Source of the DNA: a virus
Lineage: Duplodnaviria; Caudoviricetes
IMG/VR virus record: IMGVR_UViG_2889049205_000001
Location: 96,001 to 160,000 of that record
DNA: 64,000 bases
Strand: one strand, 5' to 3'
Within the stretch, counting starts at the first letter, position 1, and every line of letters begins with the position of its first letter. Under the pieces are notes generated by a model. It did no database searches. It was not told the DNA's origin and saw nothing but the letters and a program-made list of their open reading frames with translations. The translations under genes were made by a program, and so were the position numbers. Of the stretch, positions 7,249-62,982 are shown piece after piece.

Positions 7249-7274
7249 AGGCCTGTCGGCCTCATTCATGATGA
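7249..7274 (+). promoter_or_regulatory. Hairpin promoter motif, copy 1
   Basis: AGGCC-TGTC-GGCCT CATTC ATGAT GA. Confidence 0.6.
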
Positions 7275-7545
7275 TGCAACACGACCATGAAAGCCACCAG
7301 GATATCGTCTCGCACCAGAACAGCAAACGTGGGGTAACTCAGCAATGTTATCTGCATAAAGCAGTCCATGCCCTCCCAGGGCGTGGCTGCAGGTTCACCA
7401 GTGGCATGTGTGTTGTGTGATGGCCGTGAAACGAGCAAACCTGGCGAAAGAATTTCCAGTTGCGTATAGCATGCTTATGTTATGATGGTTCTATTCGTCT
7501 TTCTTGATTATATGTTATGAGACTGTCGTGCGAGGTGCGTTATCA

Positions 7546-8043
7546 TTGATTGTTCATCGTAGATCCAAGGAGCATTATCCGGTTGAGTTTCAGCCGCTTA
7601 CCTCAAGGGACGTGCAGCGCATGGTTAAAGACGGCGGCCCGAACAGTTGGGAGCCGGCATTCGACTGGTCGCTGTATTTCCGTTACAACCGCACTGAAGT
7701 GTATAAGATGGTCATTAAGGGTAATGACTACATACAGGGCTGCATTGCCTTCGAGATCAAGGAAGATCATGTCTATGTACACTTGATCGAATCGGCTCCC
7801 CATAATTTTAAGGGTAAAGAGTTCGAGATGATCGGCGAGCACATGCTTGCTTTTGCGTGTAAGCGAAGCGAGCAGCTCGGATTCGAAGGGGCCGTCGCAT
7901 TACAGTCGAAGACGGGGCCAAGATTTGTACCTCTTATGCGTTATTATATGGGCCCTAAGATTAGAGCCGAGCATCTCGGAAATGGGTACATGATTATAGA
8001 TGGCCCTTCAGCTGACCGGCTAATTATGCTATACTCTAATTAA
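7546..8043 (+). CDS. GNAT-family acetyltransferase-like protein
   Basis: VYVHLIESAPHN...IGEHMLAFAC...GFEGAVALQSK pattern; TTG start after GAGGTG. Confidence 0.65.
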   Translation: MIVHRRSKEHYPVEFQPLTSRDVQRMVKDGGPNSWEPAFDWSLYFRYNRTEVYKMVIKGNDYIQGCIAFEIKEDHVYVHLIESAPHNFKGKEFEMIGEHMLAFACKRSEQLGFEGAVALQSKTGPRFVPLMRYYMGPKIRAEHLGNGYMIIDGPSADRLIMLYSN

Positions 8044-8046
8044 GGA

Positions 8047-8238
8047 GTGATGATGCTTATGAGAACAAGACCATATGCTAGGCTGTATGCGCCAATGAGA
8101 TCTCTTGATGACGCTGCTCGTCTTGCCGGCGGGTACGTAAAGCAATCTCTTCCTGTTGAGAACCAACAACGTGATCAGATGATTTCAGAGGCTATTGCCA
8201 ATCGTAAGAATAAACGTGTTGCGAAGGTCCGCTCTTAG
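8047..8238 (+). CDS. Small basic protein, possible GNAT partner
   Basis: AAGGAG RBS directly after the GNAT stop; followed by a terminator. Confidence 0.55.
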   Translation: MMMLMRTRPYARLYAPMRSLDDAARLAGGYVKQSLPVENQQRDQMISEAIANRKNKRVAKVRS

Positions 8239-8257
8239 GAGTGGGCCTTTTTCTTTT
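8225..8257 (+). terminator. Intrinsic terminator
   Basis: AGGTCCGCTC/GAGTGGGCCT plus T-run. Confidence 0.6.
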
Positions 8258-8499
8258 GGTTCGTGATCTGTATAAAGCTTAATGCTACATATGGGGGCCG
8301 AGTGAATACGAGGCCCATATCAGATACATAGAAGTGATGTGCCTATACGATTGCTTTTCATACTGATGACTATGTGTATTGGTATGATGATCCTTTCAAT
8401 GAGGATCGTCTATAGTTCTCTCTCTTCCCCCGCCCTCCTCGCTTGGTAATCCTTTCCCCTGATTATGGTATACTATCAACATAGAAAGGTTGTGATCCT

Positions 8500-8676
8500 A
8501 TGAATATTGCTGTGTGTGAGAAAGACGGCATTACCAGTGTCCCGTTGTCTGAGGTAATGTACGTCAGCACTGAGGAGAATGCCGGAACCAAGAGAGTCGT
8601 TGTCCAAACGGCGAGCGGGAATTATACGCTGCCTGCAACACTAGCTGAGTGCGGTCAGCTCTTCGAGAAAAAGTGA
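8500..8676 (+). CDS. 58-aa half-LytTR-like protein (absent from the ORF track)
   Basis: MNIAVCEKDGITSVPLSEVMYVSTEE...VVVQTASGNYTLPATLAEC; extended -10 TGGTATACT, AAAGGT RBS, own terminator. Confidence 0.6.
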   Translation: MNIAVCEKDGITSVPLSEVMYVSTEENAGTKRVVVQTASGNYTLPATLAECGQLFEKK

Positions 8677-8829
8677 GAGAGCCCTCGTGGTTCTCTTTTT
8701 TCGTGTTGTGGTGCTTCATTTATGTATGCTCTCTATATGCTTCGTGCGTATAGGGAGCTTTTTTTATTCTCCCCCTTTCCCCAGGTTTGTGTAATGTGTT
8801 ACATTAGTCGATGAACTACAAGAAAGGAT

Positions 8830-9126
8830 GTGTTACATATGCACCCGCTCCAGGGTCATTATGCTCGTAGCTTGGATAAGCCATATGCTGCTGTTAAGGC
8901 TATCCGTAAGGGTAAGCGTCTTATCGTTGTCCCCGGCAGCTTCTTTATCAGTCGTGCAGATACTATGTTTATCTCTCTTCCCGACGACTACCAGGTGGTT
9001 TCTGAGGAAGGCAAGGTCCTTCCGGCCACCGGCTCGTTCATGATATCTGCAGAGACGTTCGATCCCTATCATGTGCTCGTAGACTATCAGCAGCAAGGGA
9101 GTGAAGCTAATGTCTCGGACGAATAG
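8830..9126 (+). CDS. Hypothetical protein
   Basis: AAAGGA RBS; operator upstream at 8790. Confidence 0.6.
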   Translation: MLHMHPLQGHYARSLDKPYAAVKAIRKGKRLIVVPGSFFISRADTMFISLPDDYQVVSEEGKVLPATGSFMISAETFDPYHVLVDYQQQGSEANVSDE

Positions 9127-9259
9127 TGATCTGCTTGATATGTCTCCTGACGATATCATGGCTGCGTATGATGCTGCCGTGAAGCGTGGGGATCAGCAAG
9201 AAGTCGCTCGGCTGCGTGAGTTTATTATCGATCGGTTGTATCAGTCCAATTTCATATGA
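9110..9259 (+). CDS. Hypothetical 49-aa protein (absent from the ORF track)
   Basis: GGGAG RBS; MSRTNSDLLDMSPDDIMAAY... Confidence 0.55.
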   Translation: MSRTNSDLLDMSPDDIMAAYDAAVKRGDQQEVARLREFIIDRLYQSNFI

Positions 9260-9272
9260 TGGAGGTAGTGCT

Positions 9273-9440
9273 ATGCTTATTGCAGATGTGGCTCACATTA
9301 CATATGTCTGTAGCTGTGTTGCATGCGGTAATGGTATTCCGCCTGAAGAGCGTGGATACTTTCGGAATCCCGCTTCCGGTGAGGAGTATTGCATTCCATG
9401 TGCTGAGCAAGAGATACATGCTATTGAGAGGGCGGGATAA
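9273..9440 (+). CDS. Small Zn-finger protein
   Basis: CxxC...CxxC; GGAGG RBS. Confidence 0.6.
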   Translation: MLIADVAHITYVCSCVACGNGIPPEERGYFRNPASGEEYCIPCAEQEIHAIERAG

Positions 9441-9442
9441 GT

Positions 9443-9724
9443 ATGCCAGATGATCTACGTAAGGCGCAGGCTGCTGATGTGTTCAGAGCACTTTGTGATC
9501 TATATCAGCAGCTGTATCCTGTATACGAGGGCATTACCCGCTACGCCTGGAGGCAGCATCATATGATGCATGGTTCTATGGCAATCAGCCATGAGGAATA
9601 TGGTAGTATCGTCTACTCTCTCGTCATGTCCGGGTTTGTGGAGTATCAAGATAGGAATGCGTTGTATCGTCCCGGAGCCGCCGGCCTTGCCAGACTGCAG
9701 CAGATATCGAATGGAGGGGCATAA
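9443..9724 (+). CDS. Hypothetical protein, possibly winged helix
   Basis: Operon context; LVMSGFVEY...YRP. Confidence 0.55.
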   Translation: MPDDLRKAQAADVFRALCDLYQQLYPVYEGITRYAWRQHHMMHGSMAISHEEYGSIVYSLVMSGFVEYQDRNALYRPGAAGLARLQQISNGGA

Positions 9725-9725
9725 A

Positions 9726-9944
9726 TTGAGGATCCCAGTTAAAGTCACGAGCAAGGTTACAGGCAGGGTTGTCGAAGCATCCTATCCTGCTCGTAAGCTG
9801 CTTGATATGTACGAAGAGGAATTGGTGCAAGACATTACTAGATGCGATTGCCAGCCTGTTGGTGAAACCAATGTCGTGGATTGTTCTTGCTATGAGGAAT
9901 GGGAAGATTACGAGCTGCTAATTGGCGACGAGATCGCTGCATAG
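9726..9944 (+). CDS. Hypothetical Cys-rich acidic protein
   Basis: GGAGG RBS, TTG start; CDCQPVGETNVVDCSC. Confidence 0.55.
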   Translation: MRIPVKVTSKVTGRVVEASYPARKLLDMYEEELVQDITRCDCQPVGETNVVDCSCYEEWEDYELLIGDEIAA

Positions 9945-9959
9945 ATCGGAGGGGTTACA

Positions 9960-10226
9960 ATGGAGCTCACTGCTGCCTATATGGATTGTCATATCATCGC
10001 CGATGCTTATCGTATGAATCCTGGGCTTATCTATGGATTCGTCTATCAGTTTCTGGATGATCCCCCGGTCTCCTATGTAGCACGTTGCATTCGGCATGAG
10101 ACTCATTCCTATCAGCATCGTGTGTTATTCAGTGTCCAGTCGAGAAGCGTTGAGCCCCATCGTGAGCGTGTTTCTCTGTATGCTGATGCCATACATAGTA
10201 TTAAGCTGCATTGGAGGATTCCTTGA
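9960..10226 (+). CDS. MELxxxY-family small protein 1
   Basis: Starts MELTAAYM. Confidence 0.7.
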   Translation: MELTAAYMDCHIIADAYRMNPGLIYGFVYQFLDDPPVSYVARCIRHETHSYQHRVLFSVQSRSVEPHRERVSLYADAIHSIKLHWRIP

Positions 10227-10489
10227 TGGGTGCGAAGCCATTAAGACGATGCTCTTTCACCAAGGATAGTGTTAAGCATTACGCTCGCTTGCAAAGGACC
10301 GGTGATCGTTTCCCCCAGCCCGCCAGGATTGTTGTCGATAAGGAATACTTTGAGCATGTCGGCGGCGTCTATGGCATGGAGACTGTAGCCATATACGATA
10401 AAATCTATGAGGATTGGGCGTATGCTCATGCTGTGTATGATGAGATACTGCGTCGTGCTGATCCGAATAGTCTGAAGGAGTTGAAATGA
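10226..10489 (+). CDS. Hypothetical protein
   Basis: TGATG coupling. Confidence 0.6.
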   Translation: MGAKPLRRCSFTKDSVKHYARLQRTGDRFPQPARIVVDKEYFEHVGGVYGMETVAIYDKIYEDWAYAHAVYDEILRRADPNSLKELK

Positions 10490-10493
10490 TTGA

Positions 10494-10727
10494 ATGGAGC
10501 TTGCTACTGCCTACCTGGAGCATCGTTATGATCTCGTTACTGACTGCTATATAGCTTCGGGTATGGTGATTGAATTCATCTACATTCAGGTGTTCGAAGG
10601 CGAGGCTGTCCGTGGCGTATATGAGGGCATGAATGACGATGGTTATGTCATGGTCTATGATGGGGAAGGTACTGAATTCTTTGAGCTCGCAAAGATCGTT
10701 TTTGCAGAGAATGTGGGGTGGCCTTAA
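10494..10727 (+). CDS. MELxxxY-family protein 2 (small beta-barrel-like)
   Basis: Starts MELATAYL. Confidence 0.7.
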   Translation: MELATAYLEHRYDLVTDCYIASGMVIEFIYIQVFEGEAVRGVYEGMNDDGYVMVYDGEGTEFFELAKIVFAENVGWP

Positions 10728-10948
10728 TGGAGCTTGCTAGCATCTATATCCTATCGGTTCGCATCTTGGGCCGTGTTTGGCGTGCTGGTCAGAAGATCAT
10801 ATACGTGCATAAGCATATGCCCTATGGTACGGACTATGAGCAAGGAACCATCATAGCATTTAGTGCTTCAGGGTTCTACGTAAAGAATAAGTGGGACTGC
10901 AATGTCCATATTCCTTACGATATCATTGAGCACATAGTGGAGGAATGA
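10727..10948 (+). CDS. MELxxxY-family protein 3 (Sm/SH3-like)
   Basis: Starts MELASIYI; TAATG coupling. Confidence 0.7.
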   Translation: MELASIYILSVRILGRVWRAGQKIIYVHKHMPYGTDYEQGTIIAFSASGFYVKNKWDCNVHIPYDIIEHIVEE

Positions 10949-11199
10949 TCTTGGAGCTTGTTGCTGCGTATGCATCTTGTGAGGTGAAGGGAGTAAAGCT
11001 TTTTGCTGGCGACTTCATTTCATTCACCTTTCTGGGAGCTGGAGAGTTACGTGGATTCTTCCGTCGTGTTGATATGAGCCACGAGGTATTCAAGTATCTT
11101 GTCGTCGATGATGACAATAACGGCATTCCTCATCATTACCAGCTTCCCTATATATACGGGATTGAGGTTCATCCTGTCCCGTCCCGCTACCGGAGGTGA
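10945..11199 (+). CDS. MELxxxY-family protein 4
   Basis: MI-LELVAAYA; alternative TTG start at 10951. Confidence 0.7.
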   Translation: MILELVAAYASCEVKGVKLFAGDFISFTFLGAGELRGFFRRVDMSHEVFKYLVVDDDNNGIPHHYQLPYIYGIEVHPVPSRYRR

Positions 11200-11206
11200 T
11201 TAGCTT

Positions 11207-11488
11207 TTGGAGCTCGTTAATGAATACTGCTGTGTGCATCAATCGTTTATGCTTCATGATATCGAGATTCGTGTAGGTGACTATGTAGGTTTCACCTATA
11301 CTGCTCCTACGATGTCTTATGAGATATCGGGTAATGTTCATGGTTTCGATATTTCCGCCGGCCTGATGTTTATGATCATTGATGATAAGTATGCAATGTA
11401 CGGACGTTCTGCCAAGAAGCATGCCGTGTATGGATATCCTTTGGATCAGGTGAAGGATCTCTACTTTCCTGCTGGAGATGTTGATTAA
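11207..11488 (+). CDS. MELxxxY-family protein 5
   Basis: TTG start, MELVNEYC; GGAGGTG RBS. Confidence 0.7.
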   Translation: MELVNEYCCVHQSFMLHDIEIRVGDYVGFTYTAPTMSYEISGNVHGFDISAGLMFMIIDDKYAMYGRSAKKHAVYGYPLDQVKDLYFPAGDVD

Positions 11489-11829
11489 TGGAGCTTGTTG
11501 CTGGCTATATGAATAGCTTCGTTATCCCCGATCCATTGGATATGTTGCCTGGCTCTGTCTATAGGTTTGAATATACTTTACAGGATGGCACTCCTGTTTC
11601 CTTTATAGCTGAATGCATGAAGCATTGGCGCTCTGGTGGTCAGGACCGAATACAGATCCTTATCTTCTATCGCAGCGGCGGACATGGTGCCAACATCTTA
11701 TCCCTATACAGTGAAAGGATACGTAATATCCGTCTGCATTGGAATGAGTGCAAGCATAACTGGGCTCTTGATGAGAGAGAGGATAAATGCTTTTGCGAGG
11801 TCTGCGGTATATGGGAGGATGAATTATAG
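11488..11829 (+). CDS. MELxxxY-family protein 6, C-terminal CxH..CxxC finger
   Basis: Starts MELVAGYM. Confidence 0.7.
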   Translation: MELVAGYMNSFVIPDPLDMLPGSVYRFEYTLQDGTPVSFIAECMKHWRSGGQDRIQILIFYRSGGHGANILSLYSERIRNIRLHWNECKHNWALDEREDKCFCEVCGIWEDEL

Positions 11830-11981
11830 TGGAGCTTGTCTCTGCCTATATAGAGTGTAAGCATGAATATGCGCTTATCGGAACTTTTGGTCGTTCTGGT
11901 TATATGATTTATGAGTATTACTGTCCTTTGTGCAATCATACGAAAGAGGAGGTGTACTATGGACCCGACTCAGTTAACTGA
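11829..11981 (+). CDS. MELxxxY-family protein 7, 50-aa Zn finger (absent from the ORF track)
   Basis: GTG overlapping TAG; MELVSAYIECKHEY...CPLC. Confidence 0.65.
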   Translation: MELVSAYIECKHEYALIGTFGRSGYMIYEYYCPLCNHTKEEVYYGPDSVN

Positions 11982-12102
11982 ACAAATCGCTGTTGATGAT
12001 CTTCCTTTCTCCGATCCCGCTTCCCTGCTGTATAAGGAGGATCTCGAGGTAATCGATGACATGTGCGTGTGCGAGAACTATCCGTTCTGCGGCTGCATGT
12101 AG
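11959..12102 (+). CDS. Small acidic Cys-tailed protein
   Basis: GGAGGTG RBS; ends CVCENYPFCGCM. Confidence 0.55.
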   Translation: MDPTQLTEQIAVDDLPFSDPASLLYKEDLEVIDDMCVCENYPFCGCM

Positions 12103-12111
12103 GATTGCCCC

Positions 12112-12294
12112 ATGGAGATGATCCGTATGTATCTGGACCTTAGTGGTCTTGAGCTTGTCCCCTGTCCCTCGTGCAGCAGCACTGGTAAGATTAAGCGTGT
12201 TTCGTTCATTGATGGGCGTTACGTGTATTCGTATCCGCCCTGTACATTATGCAATGGTGGCGGCATTGTCACCTTGCACAGATATAGGATGTGA
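12112..12294 (+). CDS. MELxxxY-family protein 8, DnaJ-type Zn finger
   Basis: MEMIRMYL; two CxxCxxxG motifs. Confidence 0.65.
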   Translation: MEMIRMYLDLSGLELVPCPSCSSTGKIKRVSFIDGRYVYSYPPCTLCNGGGIVTLHRYRM

Positions 12295-12587
12295 CTGTAT
12301 TGGAGCTAATTGCGGAATACCTTTCTTGCACCCAGCTCTCCCGCTTTGTATTCGCCCGGTTCGGTCATAGTTATGGCTATGATCTCGGCATTCGCTTGAA
12401 GGTAGAACATACCGATTGCGAACTCGATGAAGATGGCGATTACGGCTATACCGAGTTTCATTATGGCGACCTGCGCCAGGTGACGCACCATTGGATCGTA
12501 CTGCGGGAGAGGTCTGCTGAAGGTTTTATTGACCATGTGATCAAGCGTTCAGAAATCATTGATGTTGTGTCCCAGGAGAGTGCTTAA
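12291..12587 (+). CDS. MELxxxY-family protein 9
   Basis: LELIAEYL; alternative TTG start at 12300. Confidence 0.65.
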   Translation: MTVLELIAEYLSCTQLSRFVFARFGHSYGYDLGIRLKVEHTDCELDEDGDYGYTEFHYGDLRQVTHHWIVLRERSAEGFIDHVIKRSEIIDVVSQESA

Positions 12588-12832
12588 TGGAACTGATTCG
12601 TGCTTATCTGATCGACAAGTTTGTTGTTGGCCAAATTTATTGGGTCGAGTGCGCCGATCATAACTATTCTGGCACCTATATTGGGAATCGGAGTGTGTTC
12701 GGTGATATGGCTCACGAGTTTCAAGATACTGTGCAATATAAGCGTGACAGCAAGGAGCGGATGCTACAGTCGAATGTATTGCTCTTCCCGGAGGAAATAA
12801 ATCTGATTCGCCGGCGATCCTTCGCTCGATGA
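12587..12832 (+). CDS. MELxxxY-family protein 10
   Basis: Starts MELIRAYL. Confidence 0.7.
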   Translation: MELIRAYLIDKFVVGQIYWVECADHNYSGTYIGNRSVFGDMAHEFQDTVQYKRDSKERMLQSNVLLFPEEINLIRRRSFAR

Positions 12833-12856
12833 GGCTGTCGCCTCCATTCTATTTGA
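12831..12856 (+). promoter_or_regulatory. Hairpin promoter motif, copy 2
   Basis: GAGGC-TGTC-GCCTC CATTC TATTT GA. Confidence 0.6.
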
Positions 12857-12889
12857 TGCTATACTCTACAAAGAAACGAGGTATTATCA

Positions 12890-14406: not shown

Positions 14407-14432
14407 ATGCCTATCGGCATGCTTCCTTGTGA
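14407..14432 (+). promoter_or_regulatory. Hairpin promoter motif, copy 3
   Basis: ATGCC-TATC-GGCAT GCTTC CTTGT GA. Confidence 0.55.
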
Positions 14433-14455
14433 TGAATACACGGGAGGCTGATGCT

Positions 14456-14632
14456 ATGCTTATGGTTTCGATCAGAGAATTGGTGTGGGGTAAGGATCAC
14501 TACGATTGGGCATGGTGCGAATTTTGTGGTGAACGTTTCATCGAGGGCTTTTACGATGACCCAGGTAAAGAAGCACATGGCTTTCATGCTGTATCTATAT
14601 GTAGCTGTTGCGCTAAAGGCGGGCTCTCCTAA
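14456..14632 (+). CDS. Small Zn-finger protein
   Basis: GGAGG RBS; two CxxC motifs. Confidence 0.55.
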   Translation: MLMVSIRELVWGKDHYDWAWCEFCGERFIEGFYDDPGKEAHGFHAVSICSCCAKGGLS

Positions 14633-14669
14633 TGGGGAGCCTTATTTCATTTTGAGGAGTGAATGGTTA

Positions 14670-14853: not shown

Positions 14854-14879
14854 CGGCCTGTCGGCCGCATTCCTATTGA
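14854..14879 (+). promoter_or_regulatory. Hairpin promoter motif, copy 4
   Basis: CGGCC-TGTC-GGCCG CATTC CTATT GA. Confidence 0.6.
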
Positions 14880-14907
14880 TGCAAAATTGTTGTCTTGGAG
14901 GCGTGCC

Positions 14908-15048: not shown

Positions 15049-15410
15049 TGGGTCTCGATGTATATGCATACGTGAGTGGTATTCATGGCAATCGCCCTTG
15101 CTTGGTCTTTGCCCCCGCTGTCCCGTTTGCTACCATGCCGCAGTTTATCTATGACGGCACGCCAATGTTCCGTTGGTCCACCCCGCTGCGCCGGTTATTC
15201 GTCGAGCTGTTTTCATCGTTCATGATGATTAACCTGGATAATCCGCCTATTTTTACTGAGGAGCAGCTTGATCAAGCTCTCATGATTCTCGATGCTGACA
15301 CATCGCTGAAGCGGGCCAAGGATCTCGGGATCGACCATGCTTATTACTTGGACATGGTGCATTTCTTCAGGATCTGCAAGCAACAGCAGTTTATCGTGGC
15401 CATCGCATAG
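15048..15410 (+). CDS. Hypothetical protein
   Basis: MGLD start; GGAGGTG RBS. Confidence 0.65.
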   Translation: MGLDVYAYVSGIHGNRPCLVFAPAVPFATMPQFIYDGTPMFRWSTPLRRLFVELFSSFMMINLDNPPIFTEEQLDQALMILDADTSLKRAKDLGIDHAYYLDMVHFFRICKQQQFIVAIA

Positions 15411-15472
15411 ATGGCCTTTTTTTCTTATTTCAGTACGTTATATTACATATTTCGTATCGGAGGGAACATACT

Positions 15473-15955
15473 GTGCATTTTACTATCCACCAATTGAAGC
15501 GGGAAGGCAACATTGAGTTTGCATTTCAGTTCCTTAGCATCTTGAAGCTGCGCAATGCCCCATTCATGGAGCACAACGAGGATCTCGATCAGTATTCTTT
15601 CGATATCGATTCCTTCAACGAGGTTTATTCTCGTGACCTGGCATCTATGGGGATCCAATATTCCGATTGTCTACTCGACTTTCACAAGCAGTCCGAACGT
15701 ATTCTCGAGGAGTTGTTCGGTATCTTCAATATGCAGATTCCTGATGATTTCAAGGGTTGGTCAATGAGCTGTGGCGATATCGTTACGCTGCAGCACGGTG
15801 AACACAAGTTTATGAAGGCATCCTACTTCTGCGATGCAGCAGGCTGGAAGCAGATCAATGTATTCAGTGGAGCTGATCGTCATGCTCAACGTGAAGAGAT
15901 CCGGGATCGGGCTCGTAAACGTCTGGCTGCTCTTCGATCCGGTACGATTCATTAA
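15473..15955 (+). CDS. YodL-domain protein
   Basis: LEELFGIFN..PDDFKGWSMSCGDIVTL...YFCD..GW. Confidence 0.75.
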   Translation: MHFTIHQLKREGNIEFAFQFLSILKLRNAPFMEHNEDLDQYSFDIDSFNEVYSRDLASMGIQYSDCLLDFHKQSERILEELFGIFNMQIPDDFKGWSMSCGDIVTLQHGEHKFMKASYFCDAAGWKQINVFSGADRHAQREEIRDRARKRLAALRSGTIH

Positions 15956-16020
15956 CTCGACTGAGCGAGTATAAACAGGCCTTTGGCTCAGTGCGGGCCC
16001 TCTATTTGAGGGTATGGCTC
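15955..16020 (+). ncRNA. Pistol ribozyme
   Basis: P1 ACTCG/CGAGT; loop ACTGAG pairs with CTCAGT (pseudoknot); ATAAACAG linker; P2 GCC/GGC; conserved GCG; P3 GCCCTC/GAGGGT. Confidence 0.8.
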
Positions 16021-16028: not shown

Positions 16029-16054
16029 ATGCCTATCGGCATGATTCTATGTGA
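16029..16054 (+). promoter_or_regulatory. Hairpin promoter motif, copy 5
   Basis: ATGCC-TATC-GGCAT GATTC TATGT GA. Confidence 0.6.
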
Positions 16055-16077
16055 AGTACAAAATAGGAGGTTTTCCT

Positions 16078-16801: not shown

Positions 16802-16928
16802 TGTATCAGGCCAAACGAATCGTGAGGTCAATTATATGGACGCTGCTGCCCAAGAATGCTCGGCTGGCATGGTTATTTACCTTGCTGGCCGAAGTAATAT
16901 TTTCTGATCAAAAACGCCGTCGTTAATG

Positions 16929-18259: not shown

Positions 18260-18285
18260 CCGGCTATCGCCTGCATTCATTTTGG
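18260..18285 (+). promoter_or_regulatory. Hairpin promoter motif, copy 6
   Basis: CCGGC-TATC-GCCTG CATTC ATTTT GG. Confidence 0.5.
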
Positions 18286-18317
18286 CATATAATGAATCTT
18301 GTTGATAAGGTGGTGTA

Positions 18318-18863
18318 ATGCATTGCATGTTTATGATACAGTACAGGGATCACACATCCAGAGATGAGCTACAGGTTGGTTATGCTGACACTGAATTCGA
18401 TCTTTCATCATGGTGGAGGCACGATGCCAATATCATATCAATACAGGACGTGCGAGATCTCGGCGATCAAAAGCCATTTCGTATTATTGTTGCCGGTTAT
18501 CGGGAGTTCGTTGATTATCCGATGGCATGCAGATGGTTGGATTACTATCTACAATACACCAATCGAGAACAAATCGTCATCATTTCTGGAATGGCTCGTG
18601 GAGCTGATACCATGGGTGAGGATTATGCTAGGGAGCGTGGGATTTACATCCACCAGGCTGCCGCTGATTGGGATCGTTACGGCAAGAGTGCCGGTTATAT
18701 GCGTAATAGTGAGATGGCCAAAGAAGCTGGACCAGGTGGCGCATGCGTTTGCTTTTGGGACGGCTTGTCCAAGGGAACGAAACACATGATTGATATATCA
18801 AAGCGCCACGAGCTGCTGCTACGTGTCGTGAATTACAAGACCAACAAGGAGATGGTAGTATGA
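18318..18863 (+). CDS. SLOG/YspA-like (DUF2493-type) protein
   Basis: RIIVAGYR, ISGMARGAD, ADWDRYGKSAGYMRNSEM, FWDG.SKGT. Confidence 0.8.
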   Translation: MHCMFMIQYRDHTSRDELQVGYADTEFDLSSWWRHDANIISIQDVRDLGDQKPFRIIVAGYREFVDYPMACRWLDYYLQYTNREQIVIISGMARGADTMGEDYARERGIYIHQAAADWDRYGKSAGYMRNSEMAKEAGPGGACVCFWDGLSKGTKHMIDISKRHELLLRVVNYKTNKEMVV

Positions 18864-19216
18864 GCTCACGTTTAGAATGGTTCAAGAAAAGATACACAGC
18901 TGGACATTTAACCTGGAGTGAACTGGAGGATGCGCTGAATCTCTTGGAGCACTACGAGAATCAGAATCCTGTTCTCTCTAAAGAGAAATGGCGTTTAACG
19001 GAAGAGAATCAGCGCATTCAGAAAGAATGGGATATGTGCGATAAAGCATGCAAAATGTGGCGCACTCGTGCCGAGAATCTTATTGGCGCAGTGAGAGTAT
19101 TCGTTGACAAGAACTTCAAGGGTGGATCCAAAGCAAATCGTGAGGATTACACTCAGATGGTAACGGCTGCTGATGTTTATAAGCTGCGTGAGTCACTGGA
19201 GGCGAATAAGTGGTGA
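18860..19216 (+). CDS. Hypothetical coiled-coil protein
   Basis: ATGA coupling. Confidence 0.6.
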   Translation: MSSRLEWFKKRYTAGHLTWSELEDALNLLEHYENQNPVLSKEKWRLTEENQRIQKEWDMCDKACKMWRTRAENLIGAVRVFVDKNFKGGSKANREDYTQMVTAADVYKLRESLEANKW

Positions 19217-20134: not shown

Positions 20135-20160
20135 GGTGCTATCGCACCTATTCAATACGA
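20135..20160 (+). promoter_or_regulatory. Hairpin promoter motif, copy 7
   Basis: GGTGC-TATC-GCACC TATTC AATAC GA. Confidence 0.6.
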
Positions 20161-20202
20161 TTTACTTAACCATACCCCTATTTTCCCAAGGAGGAACTAT
20201 CC

Positions 20203-24489: not shown

Positions 24490-24492
24490 ACC

Positions 24493-49890: not shown

Positions 49891-50372
49891 TGCGCTATTT
49901 CAGAAGCAAAGTATGTCAACTCGAAACGTCCGAACAGTTCCAGAAGCTGCTGGATCAGTTCTTGGATTTATTCTATCCATTCATCCAAAAGACCGGCGGA
50001 GACGAGCACGACTTTAACCGTTGCTCCAATAACATTAGGTACCGAATCATTAAGATGCGTGAATCAGAGCAAAAGCTCGCTGAAGATTCTGAATCGACAG
50101 ATCTTCGGAGAGATGTAAATTCTAGCGCTCGCCAACTCCGCATGTATTTTCAAGAGTTCCACAATCTCAGTTTTTCGGAATCCAATCAGCTCACGATTGA
50201 GGCTCGTCTTATTGAGTATGAGAACGAAATTGAGGAGCTGGAGAAGCACGGCAATGCACGGCCGGTGATGCGTGAACAGCTCGCAGCTCGCCGTGATTAT
50301 TACTTGGAGCATTATCCAACCCTCGCCTCCAAATTGGCTCAATTCCCGATCCTGTCGGATTCATTCAACTAG
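49890..50372 (+). CDS. Hypothetical protein
   Basis: TAATG coupling. Confidence 0.6.
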   Translation: MRYFRSKVCQLETSEQFQKLLDQFLDLFYPFIQKTGGDEHDFNRCSNNIRYRIIKMRESEQKLAEDSESTDLRRDVNSSARQLRMYFQEFHNLSFSESNQLTIEARLIEYENEIEELEKHGNARPVMREQLAARRDYYLEHYPTLASKLAQFPILSDSFN

Positions 50373-50387
50373 AAGGAGGAGATAGTC

Positions 50388-53540: not shown

Positions 53541-53903
53541 ATGGAATGCCCGTATTGCGGCAGCCCCGCAGTTTTTATGACGCACAAGGAGTTCTACGGG
53601 CGGGATTATGGCGGCAATGTTTACGTTTGTCGGCCATGCGATGCCTACGTCGGGACTCACGGGAGAAGCAAGGCGCCATTAGGGACGATGGCGAATGCAG
53701 AGCTTAGACGGTATCGGAATCAGGCTCATGCAGCCTTTGATCCGATCTGGAAAAGCAAGAGCATGCACCGCACTGCGGCATATCGTTGGATGCAGAAGGT
53801 TATGGATCTCACGCCGCAGGAAGCGCACATCGGCATGTTCGATGTTCCGAAGTGCATTAAGCTTGTTGAAATTTGTAGTCGCTATCGCTCCCATTCATCA
53901 TGA
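53541..53903 (+). CDS. DUF3268-like zinc-finger protein
   Basis: CPYCG, C..CDAYVGTH, PLGTMA..LR..R..AH..FD.IW, AHIGMF. Confidence 0.8.
   Translation: MECPYCGSPAVFMTHKEFYGRDYGGNVYVCRPCDAYVGTHGRSKAPLGTMANAELRRYRNQAHAAFDPIWKSKSMHRTAAYRWMQKVMDLTPQEAHIGMFDVPKCIKLVEICSRYRSHSS
53878..53903 (+). promoter_or_regulatory. Hairpin promoter motif, copy 13 (short-stem class)
   Basis: GTCGC-TATC-GCTCC CATTC ATCAT GA, upstream of the primase RBS. Confidence 0.55.
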
Positions 53904-53927
53904 AATAAACAAACGGAGGTGACGGGT

Positions 53928-56547: not shown

Positions 56548-56576
56548 TTGATACTTAATTCTGTATCGCCTATAAT
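56548..56576 (+). promoter_or_regulatory. SigmaA-type promoter
   Basis: TTGATA-17 bp-TATAAT. Confidence 0.7.
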
Positions 56577-56605
56577 CAAGGCATACATAGTTAAGGAGGG
56601 CTCAC

Positions 56606-57136
56606 ATGTCTAAGGATATCAGGGAGCTTGCCAAGGGACTGGTGGGCAGCCCGACAAACAACACCGCATTGCCTTCGGGTGGAGGTTTCCTCGGAGGTAA
56701 AAAGCAATCGTCAAGCAATGAACCATCTTCAGCGCCCGCTATTAATCATTCCCAGGTCGCAGCAGCTTCTGAGGCGACACCGGCCGCCCAAACAACACCG
56801 GCGCCAAGACGGCAGCAGCAGGTTGTACCGAAAGGCGAAAGAATGTATGATGATCTTCCCGCCGAAGCAAAGAAAGTGTACCGGGACGATGTGGATCCGG
56901 AGCGTTACGGCGTCAAGCCGCTTCAGCGCAACGTGCGCTATTATAACAAGGATATTGTCAAATGGCTCGGGGACTTCTCGGAAGAGAATCAGCTCGAGGG
57001 CGGCGAGGCGATTACGCAGTCCGTCTTGATCGAGACGCTGCTCGGTATCGCCATGTATGACCTGCAGCTGCAGCCGGACGGATTTAAATCCGCAAGAGAC
57101 GTTCGTCAATATATCTTGAGTAAATTAAAGGAATAA
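56606..57136 (+). CDS. Hypothetical protein, possible RHH DNA-binding C-terminus
   Basis: Disordered N-terminal half; strand-helix-helix ending TQSVLIETLL. Confidence 0.6.
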   Translation: MSKDIRELAKGLVGSPTNNTALPSGGGFLGGKKQSSSNEPSSAPAINHSQVAAASEATPAAQTTPAPRRQQQVVPKGERMYDDLPAEAKKVYRDDVDPERYGVKPLQRNVRYYNKDIVKWLGDFSEENQLEGGEAITQSVLIETLLGIAMYDLQLQPDGFKSARDVRQYILSKLKE

Positions 57137-57242
57137 CGATCTATATTGAAAGGCATTACACAAATTTAAGTGTAGTGCCTTTTCTTTATGTATATATGTG
57201 GTATAATAGCTTAGAAATTAATCGGAGGTGTACTTTTCCACC

Positions 57243-57998
57243 ATGGAACTGATTACAGCTTATTTATATAATCAGTCGCCCATCGATGTATTTAACATCA
57301 TGGAATCGACATTCAAAAATATGACCTCATCGAGGTGGTTCGAGGAAGAACGTCAACCGAAGAATTTCAAGATCATGAACAAACGATTCAAGGTTGCCGA
57401 TGTCGTTTACCGGGTTGTTCTGCGATTCCGCTTGGATACGCCAGGAGTTTACACACTCGATACGCCTATCCCATTTGCAGTTATGCTCTCGGAGCGGTAT
57501 GAGGTCGAAAAAGCGCACGGGACGGAATCCCGTTACAAAGACGTCAAAGTATGGCACAGCAAGGAAATGAAGAGCACGATCGGCTACTTCCAGGCGGGAG
57601 TTCCCGTAGTGCTGATTAATGAAGTCATTGATGATCTTAAAACGGTGATTCAACATGTTGATGCGCCAGAGGTCGATATCGATCTTTACTCGGCGCAGCG
57701 ACGACCAATCCGCATGTTTTTGGGTGGCCAAGAGATTGGGGAGGTCCAATCGGTTTCAATCACGCCTGAGCGAGATATTAACGGGCGGCCGGTCCGCCGT
57801 GTGAATGTGCTTGGCGGTGGGGATATTTCAGCTGCTCTTGAAGCGGACGCTATCGCTCTCATTCGTCGTGAAATAGGGGTCGGCGTCGCAGAGGCAGAAC
57901 GCCTTTTTCATCGGCTTATCGGCAGCGCAGACATCGGAGAAGAAGCTATTTTAAGATCGATTCGAAATTACATGGACGATACGGAGGATGAGTCGTAA
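57243..57998 (+). CDS. MELxxxY-family protein 14 (large)
   Basis: Starts MELITAYL; GGAGGTG RBS. Confidence 0.65.
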   Translation: MELITAYLYNQSPIDVFNIMESTFKNMTSSRWFEEERQPKNFKIMNKRFKVADVVYRVVLRFRLDTPGVYTLDTPIPFAVMLSERYEVEKAHGTESRYKDVKVWHSKEMKSTIGYFQAGVPVVLINEVIDDLKTVIQHVDAPEVDIDLYSAQRRPIRMFLGGQEIGEVQSVSITPERDINGRPVRRVNVLGGGDISAALEADAIALIRREIGVGVAEAERLFHRLIGSADIGEEAILRSIRNYMDDTEDES

Positions 57999-59262: not shown

Positions 59263-62200
59263 ATGGGTACTTTGCGATCCACTGAATTATACAAGCTCGA
59301 AATCTTTGGCCGTGGTTTCCACGAGCAGGCATTTTGCGATCTGCTGGTACTGGACATGCGCCGCAATGTACGGAACGTTTATCTCGCCAATGTTATGAGC
59401 ACGGATATTCGTGTCAAGTCACTGGCTGCCAATATGCAAGAGGTGCGTACCGGTCGTATCGTGCGGGCTGAAGGCAATGAAAAGGAGTCTCTGCACAAAA
59501 ACGAAATCACGAATATATACATCCATGAGAAGAACTTCTTCCATGTACATGACAGCAAGGTGGACGACTTGCTGCAGATGATGTTTGTCGCCAAGAACGC
59601 TCGTCCGAACGTAAAGGATCGCCAGGATTGGCAGGCTGAAGAAGAGCAGCGGCTCCAAAATGGAGAGTCTCCACGTCGTGCGCCCGAGGAACTCATCCTG
59701 GCCTGGGATGGTGATTTCAAGAAGACGATCTATCAGGTGCTCAATGACCGGTACAATACGCCAATGCTTGAAGATTGGCAGGAATATATCGTCGATACGT
59801 TGATCGCCGATCATTTTTATTCGCCGCTTGAAGTTCGCTGCTACGGACGTGAGCATGCGCTGGAGGCCGGCTTGCTGTCCATTACAGAGCGACAGCTCGA
59901 AGAGATCATTACACAAGGCATTCTGGCGCAGGAGATCTACTTCGATCCATCCGGATCCAACCTGATGAGCGATGGCCGCAGCGAAGACGAAGGCATCTTG
60001 AAGGATTGCAACGGTCTTGATGATTACCTGACTCATTTTGCCGGCGCCCTTGGTTCTCGTATCCAAGAGAACACGGCACTGCGCTTTGATCCAATGCGGG
60101 ACCGCCACAGTGAGGCTTTCTATGATGTCAACCTGCATGCGAATCAGCGGGGCATCACTGGGCTCTTTCCGCCGCAGGCCGATACGGTGATGGGTGCAGC
60201 GAAGACGCTGATTGACGACCGCTATGTGTTCCTCGTTTGTGAAATGGGTACTGGTAAAACGGTTATGGGCGAAGTGCTGCCATACATCACGGAAGCGATT
60301 GATCAAGCGAAACGAAATCCGGATCCATTCCGGACCATCGTTTTCGTGCCGACCATCATGGTATCGAAGTGGATGCGGGAAATTCAAGACCGCATCCCTG
60401 GCGCCAAAGTAATCGAGATCAAAAGCTATCGTGACATCATTCCGCTCCAGCATGCACCGTATAAGCCCGAGACAATCGAGTATTATGTTATGAGCTCCGA
60501 TGTTGCCAAAGCGGATTATCCGATCGTTCCGGTGGAAAACTGGCGTGAGCGCAAAGGCGATGCAAAGCAGTCTCGTGAAGAGGGCAAAAAGGCCAGACTG
60601 GCGCTGCACAAAAGTGAATTCTACGCCGATGGCCATTTGCGTGAGTACGTGATGAGCGGCGATACCGGCTTCTATTGCCCGGATTGCGGCCAGCCTCTAA
60701 AAGTAGGCAAGGGACGCAACGAGAAGATGTCGGACGTAAACTTTTACAAGACCCGCAATTCCAGCGGCAAGATGGTTTATGACCGCAAAGTGGCGAATGC
60801 CTATTGCACGAATCTCGTTGCGACAAAATACATGCCTTCTCACCGGATCAAGACGCCGGGAAAACAAATGCATGCCTGCGGATATAACCTGTGGCAGCCG
60901 ATGCCACTCAAGGATAAATCCCTGAATCGAAAAGTGTCCCCTGCTTGGTTCATCAACAACCGACTCCGCCGTGGCTTCTTCAAGTACCTGATCGCTGATG
61001 AGGTACATGAGTACAAATCCGGCGACACTGACCGTGCGAATGCGTTTGGCCAGCTCGTCAATCACACGACGAAGCAGATTCTGCTGACGGGTACGCTGCT
61101 TGGCGGACAAGCCTCTGACCTGTTCTACCTGATTGCCCGTTTGGATTCCCGCCGGCTGAAGCGTGAAGGGATCACGTACAACGACATTAACGGGTTCATC
61201 GAGCGTTATGGCGTGTTCGAGCACAAATTCCGCATGGTGGATGACTGGGAAGGCGCATCGCTGGCAAATACAGCATCACAAACCCGCAAGAAGAGTGGCC
61301 GCTCCGAAAAGCCCGGCGTTTCGCCGCAGGTATTCTCTCGATTCCTGATCTCGAACTGTGCATTCCTCGAGCTGTCGGACTTGGCGCAGGCGCTGCCGAG
61401 GTATCGAGAAGAGCCGATCTTTGTTGAGATGCATCCGGACCATTTGGCTGCTTACCGGGATCTCGAGGAACAAGTCGGATCCCAGATGCGAAGCAATGTG
61501 GCGCAAGGCGGCATGAAGCATGTATCGACTTACGTGAACCGGATCTATCAGTATGCAGATATGCCGTTTAACCAAAGTCCGATCACCTATTACGATGACC
61601 AGGGCCGGCAGCGGACTTTGGCCACGCCGATCAATTTCAGCTCTGATGACTTGATCCCGACGAAGTACAATGCGCTCACGAACATGATTGATGCGCAGAT
61701 CCGCCGGGAACGCAAAACCATGGTGTACTGCCGCTTCACCGGCGTCAATCCGGTCGATCTCTACCTGTACAACAAGCTCAAGGCAGAAGGCTACAATGTC
61801 GGCATCCTGCGCTCTAGTGGCAAGGACTACGATGGCCTGACGATGCCTAAGCAGGAGGACCGTGAGAAATGGCTGCGCCAAATGATGGACAAGAACGGCT
61901 GGGACGTTCTGATCACCAACCCTCGTCTTGTTTCGGTCGGGCTCGACTTGCTCGATTTCCCGACGATCGTGTACTACCAGATGGACTACTCGACTTACAA
62001 CTACATGCAGTCTTGCCGCCGTTCGTGGCGTATTAAGCAAACGAAGGATGTCGAGGTTTACACGCTGGTGTATCAGGAAACGATGCAAGCCGACGTGCTG
62101 AACCATATCGCCAAGAAGATCGATGCCGCATTGGCGCTGCAGGGTAAGTTCTCCGAGGAAGGCCTCCGTGCAATGGCCGAGACCGGTGACGGCATCAATG

Positions 62201-62565
62201 CGCTGGCCAAGCGCCTGATGCGTGAAGGAACGCTGGACGGAGTGGACTCTATTGAAGATCGCTGGAAGCGAATCAATGAGGCTCGTGATCAAAGCATGCA
62301 GAGCGTGATGAATTTCGGTTACGAGTCTTATGATGAGACCGTCATGAATCCGCTCGGTCTTGAAGAAGTGCGCCGCATTGCACAAGGCATGATCGCATCC
62401 AAGCAAGCCGACTTCGCTGCCGGCAAGATCTCCGCAGAAGCTCTGGACGATTACCTCAAGCACATGGAAGACATGATGCTCTCGATCCAAGATGCCTCGA
62501 AGTACAACAAGGGGTTGCGCAAGAAGGATCGTGTTATCGAGGGTCAAATCGCCTTTTCGTTCTAA
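59263..62565 (+). CDS. Large SNF2-like helicase with Zn insert
   Basis: CEMGTGKT, DEVHEYK, LTGT, GLDL, QSCRRSWRI. Confidence 0.85.
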   Translation: MGTLRSTELYKLEIFGRGFHEQAFCDLLVLDMRRNVRNVYLANVMSTDIRVKSLAANMQEVRTGRIVRAEGNEKESLHKNEITNIYIHEKNFFHVHDSKVDDLLQMMFVAKNARPNVKDRQDWQAEEEQRLQNGESPRRAPEELILAWDGDFKKTIYQVLNDRYNTPMLEDWQEYIVDTLIADHFYSPLEVRCYGREHALEAGLLSITERQLEEIITQGILAQEIYFDPSGSNLMSDGRSEDEGILKDCNGLDDYLTHFAGALGSRIQENTALRFDPMRDRHSEAFYDVNLHANQRGITGLFPPQADTVMGAAKTLIDDRYVFLVCEMGTGKTVMGEVLPYITEAIDQAKRNPDPFRTIVFVPTIMVSKWMREIQDRIPGAKVIEIKSYRDIIPLQHAPYKPETIEYYVMSSDVAKADYPIVPVENWRERKGDAKQSREEGKKARLALHKSEFYADGHLREYVMSGDTGFYCPDCGQPLKVGKGRNEKMSDVNFYKTRNSSGKMVYDRKVANAYCTNLVATKYMPSHRIKTPGKQMHACGYNLWQPMPLKDKSLNRKVSPAWFINNRLRRGFFKYLIADEVHEYKSGDTDRANAFGQLVNHTTKQILLTGTLLGGQASDLFYLIARLDSRRLKREGITYNDINGFIERYGVFEHKFRMVDDWEGASLANTASQTRKKSGRSEKPGVSPQVFSRFLISNCAFLELSDLAQALPRYREEPIFVEMHPDHLAAYRDLEEQVGSQMRSNVAQGGMKHVSTYVNRIYQYADMPFNQSPITYYDDQGRQRTLATPINFSSDDLIPTKYNALTNMIDAQIRRERKTMVYCRFTGVNPVDLYLYNKLKAEGYNVGILRSSGKDYDGLTMPKQEDREKWLRQMMDKNGWDVLITNPRLVSVGLDLLDFPTIVYYQMDYSTYNYMQSCRRSWRIKQTKDVEVYTLVYQETMQADVLNHIAKKIDAALALQGKFSEEGLRAMAETGDGINALAKRLMREGTLDGVDSIEDRWKRINEARDQSMQSVMNFGYESYDETVMNPLGLEEVRRIAQGMIASKQADFAAGKISAEALDDYLKHMEDMMLSIQDASKYNKGLRKKDRVIEGQIAFSF

Positions 62566-62735
62566 TGGAGCTGGTCCAGACTTACTTCAACAAAGTTCCT
62601 ATTCTGTTTACTGGCCGGATTCGGGTGTATGCTGTCATATGCCCGAAGTGCCGGCGGTGCGAATATGAAATTGAGCCCGGCCCGGTTGAAAAGTGTTATC
62701 TCTGCTATCTGGATGACTTGAAAGACGGTGCATGA
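62565..62735 (+). CDS. MELxxxY-family protein 15, 56-aa Zn ribbon (absent from the ORF track)
   Basis: TAATG coupling; MELVQTYF...CPKC...CYLC. Confidence 0.6.
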   Translation: MELVQTYFNKVPILFTGRIRVYAVICPKCRRCEYEIEPGPVEKCYLCYLDDLKDGA

Positions 62736-62750
62736 GAGGGGGTGATTGAA

Positions 62751-62924
62751 GTGTCGGATGAACAACAACAACAACCCAAAAAGCGACATCGGGGGCCATC
62801 CCCTGTCATTGTGCCGAAAAAAATAGCAGACTGGGCAAAAGAAGAGTCAAACGTCGGCAAGGTGAATACCTGGAAAGTCGGCGGTGGTCGGCCGGCATAC
62901 AACGGGACCAGGAACTTGACCTAA
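62751..62924 (+). CDS. Small hypothetical protein
   Basis: GGGGTG RBS. Confidence 0.5.
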   Translation: MSDEQQQQPKKRHRGPSPVIVPKKIADWAKEESNVGKVNTWKVGGGRPAYNGTRNLT

Positions 62925-62956
62925 CATTAATCGATCGGTGACTACCAAAACCATTA

Positions 62957-62982
62957 CCGCCTATCGGCGGAATTCTATATGA
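62957..62982 (+). promoter_or_regulatory. Hairpin promoter motif, copy 14
   Basis: CCGCC-TATC-GGCGG AATTC TATAT GA. Confidence 0.6.

Follow-up and report, generated by a model that had tools for sequence, protein, structure and literature searches.

Covarying DNA hairpins as candidate promoters for the single-chain two-barrel RNA polymerase of a jumbo phage-like element

The stretch of DNA analysed here, called the window throughout, comprises 64 kb of a virus of the class Caudoviricetes (positions 96,001 to 160,000 of IMG/VR record IMGVR_UViG_2889049205_000001) and corresponds to C3:96001-160000, C3 being one contig of a three-contig, 7.5-Mb genome. Sixteen copies of a short motif with an inverted repeat at its heart are strung out, all in one orientation, over a 56-kb block of this window that begins just 3' of the gene for a 1227-residue RNA polymerase (3362-7045). 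We lean towards the view that the 16 sites are promoters of the element's own polymerase, and that this enzyme would read them through a hairpin folded in the template strand.

The core pattern CTRTCG-N5-ATTC has 15 exact matches in the window, every one on the plus strand, compared with a mean of 0.38 and a maximum of 3 in dinucleotide-preserving shuffles of the same 64 kb. A CTTC variant at 14411 raises the total to 16. Sites are named here after the C of CTRTCG (for example 14411 or 50352), and the coordinates of each whole element begin 4 nt upstream of that base. A preliminary description of this DNA had listed 14 copies; all 14 positions proved to be correct, each given as 4 nt upstream of the C, and every complementary flank pair quoted there was found, while copies 50352 and 57850 had been overlooked. 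The aligned copies give the extended consensus stem(3-4)-C-TRTC-G-stem'-(C)ATTC-wtt.T-GA(a/t), in which about five bases, mostly T or A, separate ATTC from a conserved GA that lies approximately 10 nt past the stem. Two classes of site can be distinguished. In class A (11 of the 16 copies) the arms vary in sequence and the pairing is perfect or nearly so. The five class B copies (31122, 39470, 43317, 53882 and 57850) share the fixed flanks GTCG-CTRTCG-CTCYC and have only a 2-bp GC/GC stem.

The motif is highly specific to this block. In a position-weight scan of both strands of the 7.5-Mb genome, the top 14 matches, and 16 of the top 18, all fell on the plus strand at C3:103-159 kb. Moreover, the loops of 13 of the 16 copies lie in non-coding DNA, which makes up only 14.4% of the region (binomial P = 4e-9), in agreement with the earlier observation that the copies are mostly intergenic.

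Covariation in the stem was assessed with 36 sites, drawn both from this element and from its relatives, and compared with 500 shuffles of the 3' partners. Paired cells amounted to 79.6%, as against 55% in the shuffles, and changes on both sides of the stem were seen in 58 cells, as against 24; neither value was attained in any of the 500 shuffles (0/500). When the partner columns were slid out of register, pairing fell to 28-46%. In Bacillus phage 0305phi8-36, which carries a related motif, the 17 clear copies gave 95% paired cells, and again 0/500 shuffles attained this figure. The hairpin is real and under selection for pairing, which bears out the conclusion that had been drawn from the complementary flanks.

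These data bear on an alternative in which the sites are promoters or operator-promoters read as duplex DNA, either by the phage polymerase or by the host polymerase with a phage factor, through the fixed bases CTRTCG, ATTC and GA, the repeat being secondary or functionless. Class B, which keeps all the fixed bases and loses the stem, speaks for this, as do the P23-45 two-barrel polymerases, which use plain sequence motifs (bioRxiv 10.1101/2022.12.01.518664), and the fact that Hardies, Thomas and Serwer (2007, Virol J 4:97, PMC2147016) presented the motif of 0305phi8-36 as no more than a sequence of 21 bp. However, the arms vary yet stay complementary in 11 of 16 copies and in all of the relatives, which indicates that it is the pairing that is selected and not base identity. 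Nor do the spacing and the fixed bases fit a -35/-10 arrangement, and three scans gave no enrichment of sigma-70-like sites in the window (19, 24 and 27 found, against 30, 29 and 22 expected). Duplex reading is regarded here as improbable. A plain sigma-70-type reading was rejected, with sites roughly at shuffle expectation and fixed bases that misfit the -35/-10 spacing.

Three features of the hairpins bear on whether the structure is one of DNA or of RNA, and on which strand folds. First, the variable stem positions comprise 143 Watson-Crick pairs and not a single G-T, whereas the 16 canonical terminator hairpins of the same window have 27 G-U among 159 pairs (17%; Fisher P = 1e-8). This favours a DNA hairpin, since pairing on both DNA strands, as in a cruciform, predicts the absence of such wobble pairs and an RNA hairpin does not. 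A count of G-T versus A-C mismatches at the outermost stem position (10 versus 2) was discarded as unusable, because a conserved T confounds it.

Second, on the sense strand every tip variant has T first and C last, so that the template strand reads G...A (GAYA, GTTA, GTCA, GGA or GCGA), closed by C:G in most clades. In the window itself the template-strand loop is C-GAYA-G in all 16 copies, as previously stated. The ordinary hairpins in the same gaps carry cUUCGg or GAAA tips on the sense strand. This tip rule speaks for a structure of DNA as against RNA, and for folding of the template strand in preference to the sense strand. Hirao and colleagues reportedly found d(GC-GAAA-GC) and d(GC-GAA-GC) to be unusually stable DNA mini-hairpins, by virtue of a sheared G-A pair, and we know of no special RNA stability of the sense-strand tips (UGUC, UAUC, UAAC, UCC and UCGC).

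Third, the non-pairing positions of class B are C-T and T-C on the sense strand, and tandem G-A/A-G on the template strand; judged from nearest-neighbour knowledge, tandem G-A is the most stable mismatch context in DNA. As for energies, class A stems have nearest-neighbour DNA values of -4.3 to -5.1 kcal/mol when the template strand folds and are 0.6 kcal/mol less stable when the sense strand does, in a model without special loop or mismatch bonuses.

The polymerase proposed to read these sites is encoded by the first large gene of the plus-strand block. Its catalytic loop, GGADNDGD, which contains the metal-binding signature DxDGD, is invariant across 22 homologues, 14 of which match the Pfam RdRP family PF05183. 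Its counterpart in 0305phi8-36 is gp99 (E = 4e-10); the YonO family phrog_8308 is matched with E = 7e-9, and YonO of SPbeta itself only with E = 0.019, in an alignment across the catalytic loop. An AlphaFold model of residues 280-960 (predicted local distance difference test score, pLDDT, 87; predicted template modelling score, pTM, 0.85) found QDE-1 in a Foldseek search with E = 2.4e-16, and also plant RDR2, the P23-45-type non-virion gp64 and crAss gp66. In contrast to this fold search, a profile search of the PDB sequences gave no match, and neither did tblastn against the phage collection; no further match was found in 400 genomes of the host's family. By sequence and predicted fold, the protein is a single-chain two-barrel (double-psi beta-barrel) enzyme of the gp99/QDE-1 type and only remotely YonO-like. 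The preliminary description was correct in calling it a two-barrel polymerase, but its likeness to YonO is distant. By analogy with YonO (PMC5467207) and crAss gp66, it probably synthesises RNA from a DNA template. The gene is flanked by a 33-nt inverted repeat (3229-3261 and 7068-7100), whose arms are 88% complementary and 3.8 kb apart; this could form a panhandle in RNA or be a DNA-level feature.

C3 is 228,841 bp long and has a GC content of 0.50, compared with 0.55 for the chromosome. Its first bases (1-200) recur at 211,771-211,970, giving a direct terminal repeat of approximately 17 kb, which fits either a linear jumbo-phage genome with long terminal repeats or an assembly that overran the junction of a circle; the terminal repeats of 0305phi8-36 measure 6.5 kb. 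The contig consists of a long minus-strand block and a plus-strand block at ~98-180 kb, the latter opened by the polymerase gene. Relatives of the polymerase are found on contigs of 187-216 kb, with a terminase gene and an actin-like partition gene on the other arm, and the gene order agrees with that of the right arm of 0305phi8-36. On these grounds the C3 element is a 0305phi8-36-like jumbo phage or phage-plasmid. The actin-like (ALP/ParM) partition gene of the relatives hints at a plasmid-prophage lifestyle.

The placement of the sites resembles that of start signals. With genes annotated by hand, 12 of the 16 sites have their GA box 16-45 nt ahead of a start codon, which is in keeping with the short distance upstream of ribosome-binding sites noted earlier, and by automated gene call the end of the hairpin lies 27-56 nt from the next start codon, also at 12 of 16. 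Copies 14411, 14858, 20139 and 24497 each head a unit of motif, gene or genes, and intrinsic terminator. Terminator-like hairpins end 15-30 nt upstream of copies 29217 and 39470, and between those terminators and the next ribosome-binding site there is the motif alone, with no room for another promoter. Three copies (50352, 53882 and 57850) overlap or sit inside the upstream coding sequence, an arrangement that is normal for promoters and awkward for terminators. A search for public sequencing runs containing positions 24000-33000 of the window listed none.

The individual sites, all on the plus strand, illustrate this arrangement. The first class A copy (7249-7275; AGGC-CTGTCG-GCCT, then CATTC-N5-GAT) is situated 203 nt 3' of the polymerase stop codon. 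The second (12831-12857; GAGG-CTGTCG-CCTC) overlaps an upstream stop codon, and the next start is 35 nt past its GA. The CTTC variant (14407-14433; ATGC-CTATCG-GCAT) is followed by one gene (14456-14632) and a terminator at 14621-14642, and the copy at 14854-14880 (CGGC-CTGTCG-GCCG) by two genes closing at a terminator at 15398-15416. The copy at 16029-16055 (ATGC-CTATCG-GCAT) is preceded by a Pistol self-cleaving ribozyme on the same strand (15955-16019; Rfam RF02679, 53.2 bits against a gathering score of 34.5), which stands between a YodL-like gene and this site; its first stem base comes 9 nt, and its CTATCG core 13 nt, after the ribozyme. Read-through transcripts from upstream would be cleaved by the ribozyme just before the putative promoter 16033. 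An imperfect stem (CCGG-CTATCG-CCTG) is seen in the copy at 18260-18286, 34 nt upstream of a gene for a YAcAr-domain protein (18318-18863). The class A copy at 20135-20161 (GGTG-CTATCG-CACC) heads gene 20203-20520, after which comes a terminator hairpin at 20635-20658 that was found in the minus-strand scan, is palindromic and may work both ways. The class A copy at 24493-24519 (AAGC-CTGTCG-GCTT) heads gene 24545-24808, with terminators at 24813-24872.

Further along the block, the copy at 29213-29239 has a 3-bp stem (CGC-CTGTCG-GCG), and the next start lies 18 nt past its GA. Just upstream of it is a 19-bp terminator-like hairpin (29150-29194), and between the two, on the plus strand, stands a palindrome, TGTAATGCATTAC (29196-29209), whose position would suit control of the putative hairpin promoter 29217. 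The first class B copy (31118-31144; GTCG-CTGTCG-CTCC, with the GC/GC stem only) precedes a gene for a protein weakly similar to single-stranded DNA-binding protein (SSB) and one for a UvsX-like recombinase. The second (39466-39492) comes ~26 nt past an intrinsic terminator at 39418-39440, with the next start 19 nt past GA, and the third (43313-43339) abuts an upstream stop codon ahead of an AAA+ ATPase gene (43378-45033). The copy at 50348-50374 (ATC-CTGTCG-GAT) overlaps the last codons and the stop of the upstream open reading frame (ORF), and the start of a helicase gene is 16 nt past its GA. Class B copy 53878-53904, ahead of a primase gene, falls within the last eight codons of a gene matching phrog_1934 (E = 3e-43), the stop codon of which is the conserved TGA of the motif itself. 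The last class B copy (57846-57872) is inside ORF 57243-57998, 128 nt upstream of the next gene, and the final class A copy (62957-62983; CCGC-CTATCG-GCGG) lies 25 nt upstream of the gene for DNA polymerase III beta, the sliding clamp.

Other arrangements are interspersed with these. Three tandem terminators (8223-8758) are followed by ~4 kb on the plus strand (8839-12832) in which ~17 small genes are closely packed, and neither a copy of the motif nor a good sigma-70-like site was found in this stretch. A plus-strand unit at 56548-57183 consists of a near-perfect host-type promoter (TTGATA-17-TATAAT, 11/12), one gene (56606-57136) and a 14-bp terminator, and is a self-contained, moron-like unit among the putatively motif-driven genes. 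A second good promoter of the host type (TGCACA-16-TATAAT, with TG upstream) stands before the helicase gene at 25975.

A motif of this kind has been seen before. In 0305phi8-36, Hardies et al. described 14 promoter candidates in the right arm, recognised as a 21-bp self-similarity and intermixed with other promoter-sized gaps, and proposed these phage-specific candidates as targets of the RdRP-like polymerase gp99 (PMC2147016). In that text the word 'hairpin' is used for terminators only, and there is no covariation analysis and no family-wide comparison. The preliminary description had known of no report of this promoter type for YonO-family enzymes; the proposal of a motif for gp99 precedes it, and it is the hairpin nature that is absent from the 2007 text. 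The complete genome of 0305phi8-36 has 19 occurrences of the core CGTTCGCACG, always on the transcribed strand. Eighteen of these cores are in the polymerase arm, at 144-212.5 kb, and the 19th (NC_009760, 71-80) belongs to the left terminal repeat and is the duplicate of the copy at 212540-212549. The copies extracted here are evidently the 21-bp motif of Hardies et al., and are hairpins whose stems covary, whose tip is fixed and which have a short box downstream. An imperfect copy lies 105 nt upstream of the gp99 gene, where it may serve autoregulation; no copy precedes the polymerase gene in the window.

The two systems belong to one phage lineage and are alike in that a gp99-like (PF05183) polymerase heads the replication arm, with shared synteny, and that approximately 14-19 one-strand copies occupy short non-coding gaps of that arm only and are absent from the host chromosome. 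In sequence, however, they differ, being stem-CGT[TCGC]ACG-stem followed by wwtGTA in 0305phi8-36 and stem-C[TRTC]G-stem followed by ATTC-N5-GA here, so that the architecture alone is shared. The stems are 7 bp in 0305phi8-36 and 4-5 bp here, and the class B variant is found here and not in 0305phi8-36. The novelty lies in reading the motif as a hairpin, in a rule that spans the family and in the connection with a different polymerase fold; the concept of a hairpin promoter comes from phage N4, and the motif in a relative from the 2007 paper.

When the DNA 3' of the homologous polymerase gene was scanned for hairpins, ten other elements proved to have this architecture on the sense strand, consisting of a variable stem, a fixed loop and a box, usually T-rich, and then GA. 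A motif and covariance scan of the whole element and related genomes, which had been put forward as a check together with the preliminary description, finds a specific motif, covarying stems and recurrence in ten relatives. In L013, whose polymerase is 82% identical, the orthologous first site is GGGC-CTATCG-GCCT-CATTC. CTRTCG tips are also found in L017, L012/G401, L027 and L029. G401, an Alicyclobacillus element, has ATTT replacing ATTC and shows no enrichment of the exact window motif; its ATTT copies were found by the hairpin-aware scan. L015, L016 and L028 have CTAACG or CTGACG tips and 5-bp arms, L030 has a C-TCC-G triloop or C-TTCC-G, then GGTGAAA, and 0305phi8-36 has arm-CGT[TCGC]ACG-arm and then wwtGTA. 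At locus L018 no clear motif was found. The tips differ by polymerase clade (TRTC, TAAC/TGAC, TCC and TCGC), while the architecture is kept across polymerases that are only 35-50% identical. The position ahead of the orthologous YAcAr-domain gene is likewise kept (18264 in the window, 20397 in L017 and 21793 in L016). In the 216-kb element L030, cUUCGg hairpins of the RNA type (16810-16860 and 19160-19210) are followed at once by GCCAC-TCC-GTGGC and GGTGAAA, which is a compact pair of end signal and start signal.

The distribution of the sites also bears on two further explanations. The sites might be single-stranded DNA signals of replication or recombination, such as entry hairpins for a primase or primosome, or attC-like cassette separators; they are co-oriented, strand-specific DNA structures found throughout a replication-gene arm, in an element that encodes primases and helicases. 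Against this stand the short distance to start codons, the conserved downstream box, a length much shorter than that of attC or ssi, the lack of an integrase nearby and the positions kept ahead of orthologous genes (YAcAr) in the relatives, and the idea seems very improbable. A selfish or neutral dispersed palindrome, like repetitive extragenic palindromes (REP) or miniature inverted-repeat transposable elements (MITE), with no role in expression, would share with the motif a short palindromic unit and many copies. We give this scarcely any credence: the arms differ wholly while tip and box are fixed, the copies are strictly in one orientation and on one arm only, and the architecture has been kept across the diverged polymerases.

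The favoured reading, that the sites are promoters of the phage polymerase, can be set out as a sequence of steps. The host polymerase would first express the phage polymerase gene, which has no motif upstream of it. The inverted repeat, with its 3-4 bp of variable Watson-Crick arms and fixed C:G pair, would then be extruded as a small hairpin, most probably in the template strand, where the 4-nt tip 5'-GAYA-3', closed by C:G, would stabilise a DNA mini-hairpin. The phage polymerase would recognise the shape of the hairpin and its tip, the T-rich box (ATTC and ~5 nt) would be the melted region, and transcription would start at or beside the conserved GA. The class B sites, located upstream of the genes for the SSB-like protein and recombinase, the ATPase, the primase and the helicase, would act more weakly or need help, for example from SSB or from higher superhelical stress, and form a later class.

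Several observations weigh against this reading. At 4-5 bp (-4 to -5 kcal/mol) the stems fall short of the length seen in N4, and it is doubtful that they would extrude unaided at physiological supercoiling. A stable hairpin had been expected even at the near-stemless copies; under nearest-neighbour DNA energies these five of the 16 sites (class B) have none, their values of -0.8 to -1.1 kcal/mol being no better than those of shuffled sequence. The absence of G-T could partly reflect the stability that very short stems need. The tip type follows the polymerase tree with the minimum number of changes, but vertical descent of whole genomes predicts the same, and the comparison was dropped as evidence. 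Several genes after strong terminators have no motif, so that the motif is not the sole promoter class. Taken together, an N4-style template-hairpin mechanism is plausible; the wobble-free stems and the G...A tip rule support it, and the near-stemless copies and short stems weaken it.

The remaining points of this kind are those shared with an RNA-level signal at gene ends or between cistrons. Here the hairpin in the sense transcript, with its U-rich tail, would pause or terminate the polymerase of the phage or of the host; or else an RNA-binding protein or a nuclease of the phage would bind or cleave it, and so set the 3' ends of transcripts or stable 5' ends. Like intrinsic terminators, the motif has a GC-rich stem followed by a T-rich stretch (CATTCATTTT), lies between genes and is co-oriented with transcription, and a simple terminator scan flags three copies as terminator-like. 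In 0305phi8-36, 11 of 17 hairpins begin 1-10 nt past the upstream stop codon and have TTTTTGTA-like tails, and the distance from hairpin to next start is looser (21-105 nt); a gene-end signal would produce the same spacing pattern. The Pistol ribozyme, 13 nt upstream of copy 16033, points to RNA processing in these gaps. When 72 sites from ten genomes were measured against crude gene calls, the median distance to the preceding stop was 11.5 nt (21% negative) and that to the following start 52 nt (interquartile range 37-105); these figures do not decide between start and end, because a promoter in a compact genome would abut the previous gene likewise.

Other properties of the sites fit a terminator or an RNA processing signal less well. 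The T-tract is interrupted by the fixed ATTC, the stem is only 4-5 bp, and G-U is absent from all 143 variable positions, compared with 17% in the terminator hairpins of the window. The tip is invariant although it has no known stability in RNA, while its complement is G...A. In L028 and L030 the spacer after the hairpin is purine-rich or G-rich, with no U-tract, and class B would give an RNA stem of 2 bp. Of the three copies in or overlapping ORFs, 53882 would end transcripts in the stop codon of a real gene, and 57850 sits 148 nt inside an ORF. Strong canonical terminators are already present upstream of two copies and downstream of four motif-headed units, and an end signal would leave the genes behind the motif without a promoter in the remaining 16-45 nt. 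An RNA-level role, the chief rival to the promoter reading, is considered unlikely, though it deserves to be taken seriously.

The template-strand hairpin proposed here recalls the promoters of phage N4, in which a loop with G at its 5' end and A at its 3' end, and a C:G closing pair, allow extrusion (PMC4496689). In N4 the hairpin is extruded under negative supercoiling, and SSB stabilises it. Promoters P1-P3 of N4 resemble the present sites in their small inverted repeat with conserved and covarying stem positions, in a template-strand loop with G first, A last and C:G closure, in the short spacer to the start (predicted here) and in the use of a sigma-independent, phage-encoded polymerase. 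The differences are considerable, however. The N4 enzyme has a T7-like fold and is packaged in the virion and injected, whereas that of the present element is of the two-barrel QDE-1 type, with nothing to indicate packaging. N4 has three promoters at one genome end, as against 16 sites over 56 kb, and its 3-nt loop is centred at -11, whereas here the loop is of 4 nt and its centre lies ~17 nt from the conserved GA. The label 'N4-style promoters' is apt for the covarying hairpin, the G...A template tip and the start-like placement, but not for the five near-stemless sites or for the geometry.

To our knowledge, the promoters of single-chain polymerases of the YonO/QDE-1 type are not known, and a full-text literature search for hairpin promoters of two-barrel phage polymerases returned nothing relevant. 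YonO of SPbeta resembles the present enzyme in being a two-barrel polymerase with a single chain from a phage of Bacillota; it makes RNA on DNA templates, and its promoter is stated to be still undefined (Forrest et al. 2017, PMC5467207). YonO differs in its length of 839 residues, being only marginally alignable to the polymerase of the element, and in that its single mapped start site, upstream of yonK, serves late genes, while the sites described here precede early and replication genes. For crAss gp66, a virion enzyme, single-stranded DNA was transcribed far better than duplex, and no motif was found upstream of the early transcripts (bioRxiv 10.1101/2020.03.07.982082).

The SPbeta genome (L010, NC_001884) was seen to contain a perfect 6-bp hairpin, TGGAGA-TTCC-TCTCCA, on the minus strand at ~60543-60558, with the template tip GGAA and followed by GTGTGAAC. 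It lies inside the amplicon used for mapping the YonO start (published as coordinate 2225998 of B. subtilis 168), 9 nt past the start of the forward primer. The hairpin resembles the sites of L030 (C-TTCC-G, then GGTGAAA). Approximately 60 nt further upstream is an invariant 8-bp hairpin, ACTGATAT-TTGGG-ATATCAGT, then TTCATTTATGAAGG. In phi3T the stem of the TTCC hairpin is weakened, and in Goe11 a hairpin is kept with a different sequence; the SPbeta-like phages are too similar for a covariation test. No clear counterpart was found at the YonO loci of B. altitudinis and Geobacillus.

A broader proposal can be put forward tentatively, as one that may well not hold. Phage polymerases of the gp99/YonO/QDE-1 type might share one promoter logic, independent of the T7-like enzyme of N4, in which a template hairpin with a G...A tip is read and initiation takes place ~10 nt beyond the base of the hairpin. 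Tip and polymerase clade would evolve together, and the strength of the stem (class A versus class B, with its tandem G-A) would time early versus replication genes, the YonO start of SPbeta being a further instance.

If a template-strand hairpin is indeed what the polymerase reads, promoters based on DNA structure would have evolved twice, in two unrelated polymerase folds. This would also fit the preference for single-stranded DNA templates in this class of polymerase, which includes the eukaryotic enzymes of RNA interference. The element and its ten relatives offer dozens of natural variants, with built-in compensatory stem changes and clade-specific tips, and these make the promoter question directly testable in vitro with one purified protein. 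If true, the short, orthogonal and sigma-independent pair of polymerase and promoter would be a useful expression tool for Bacillota.

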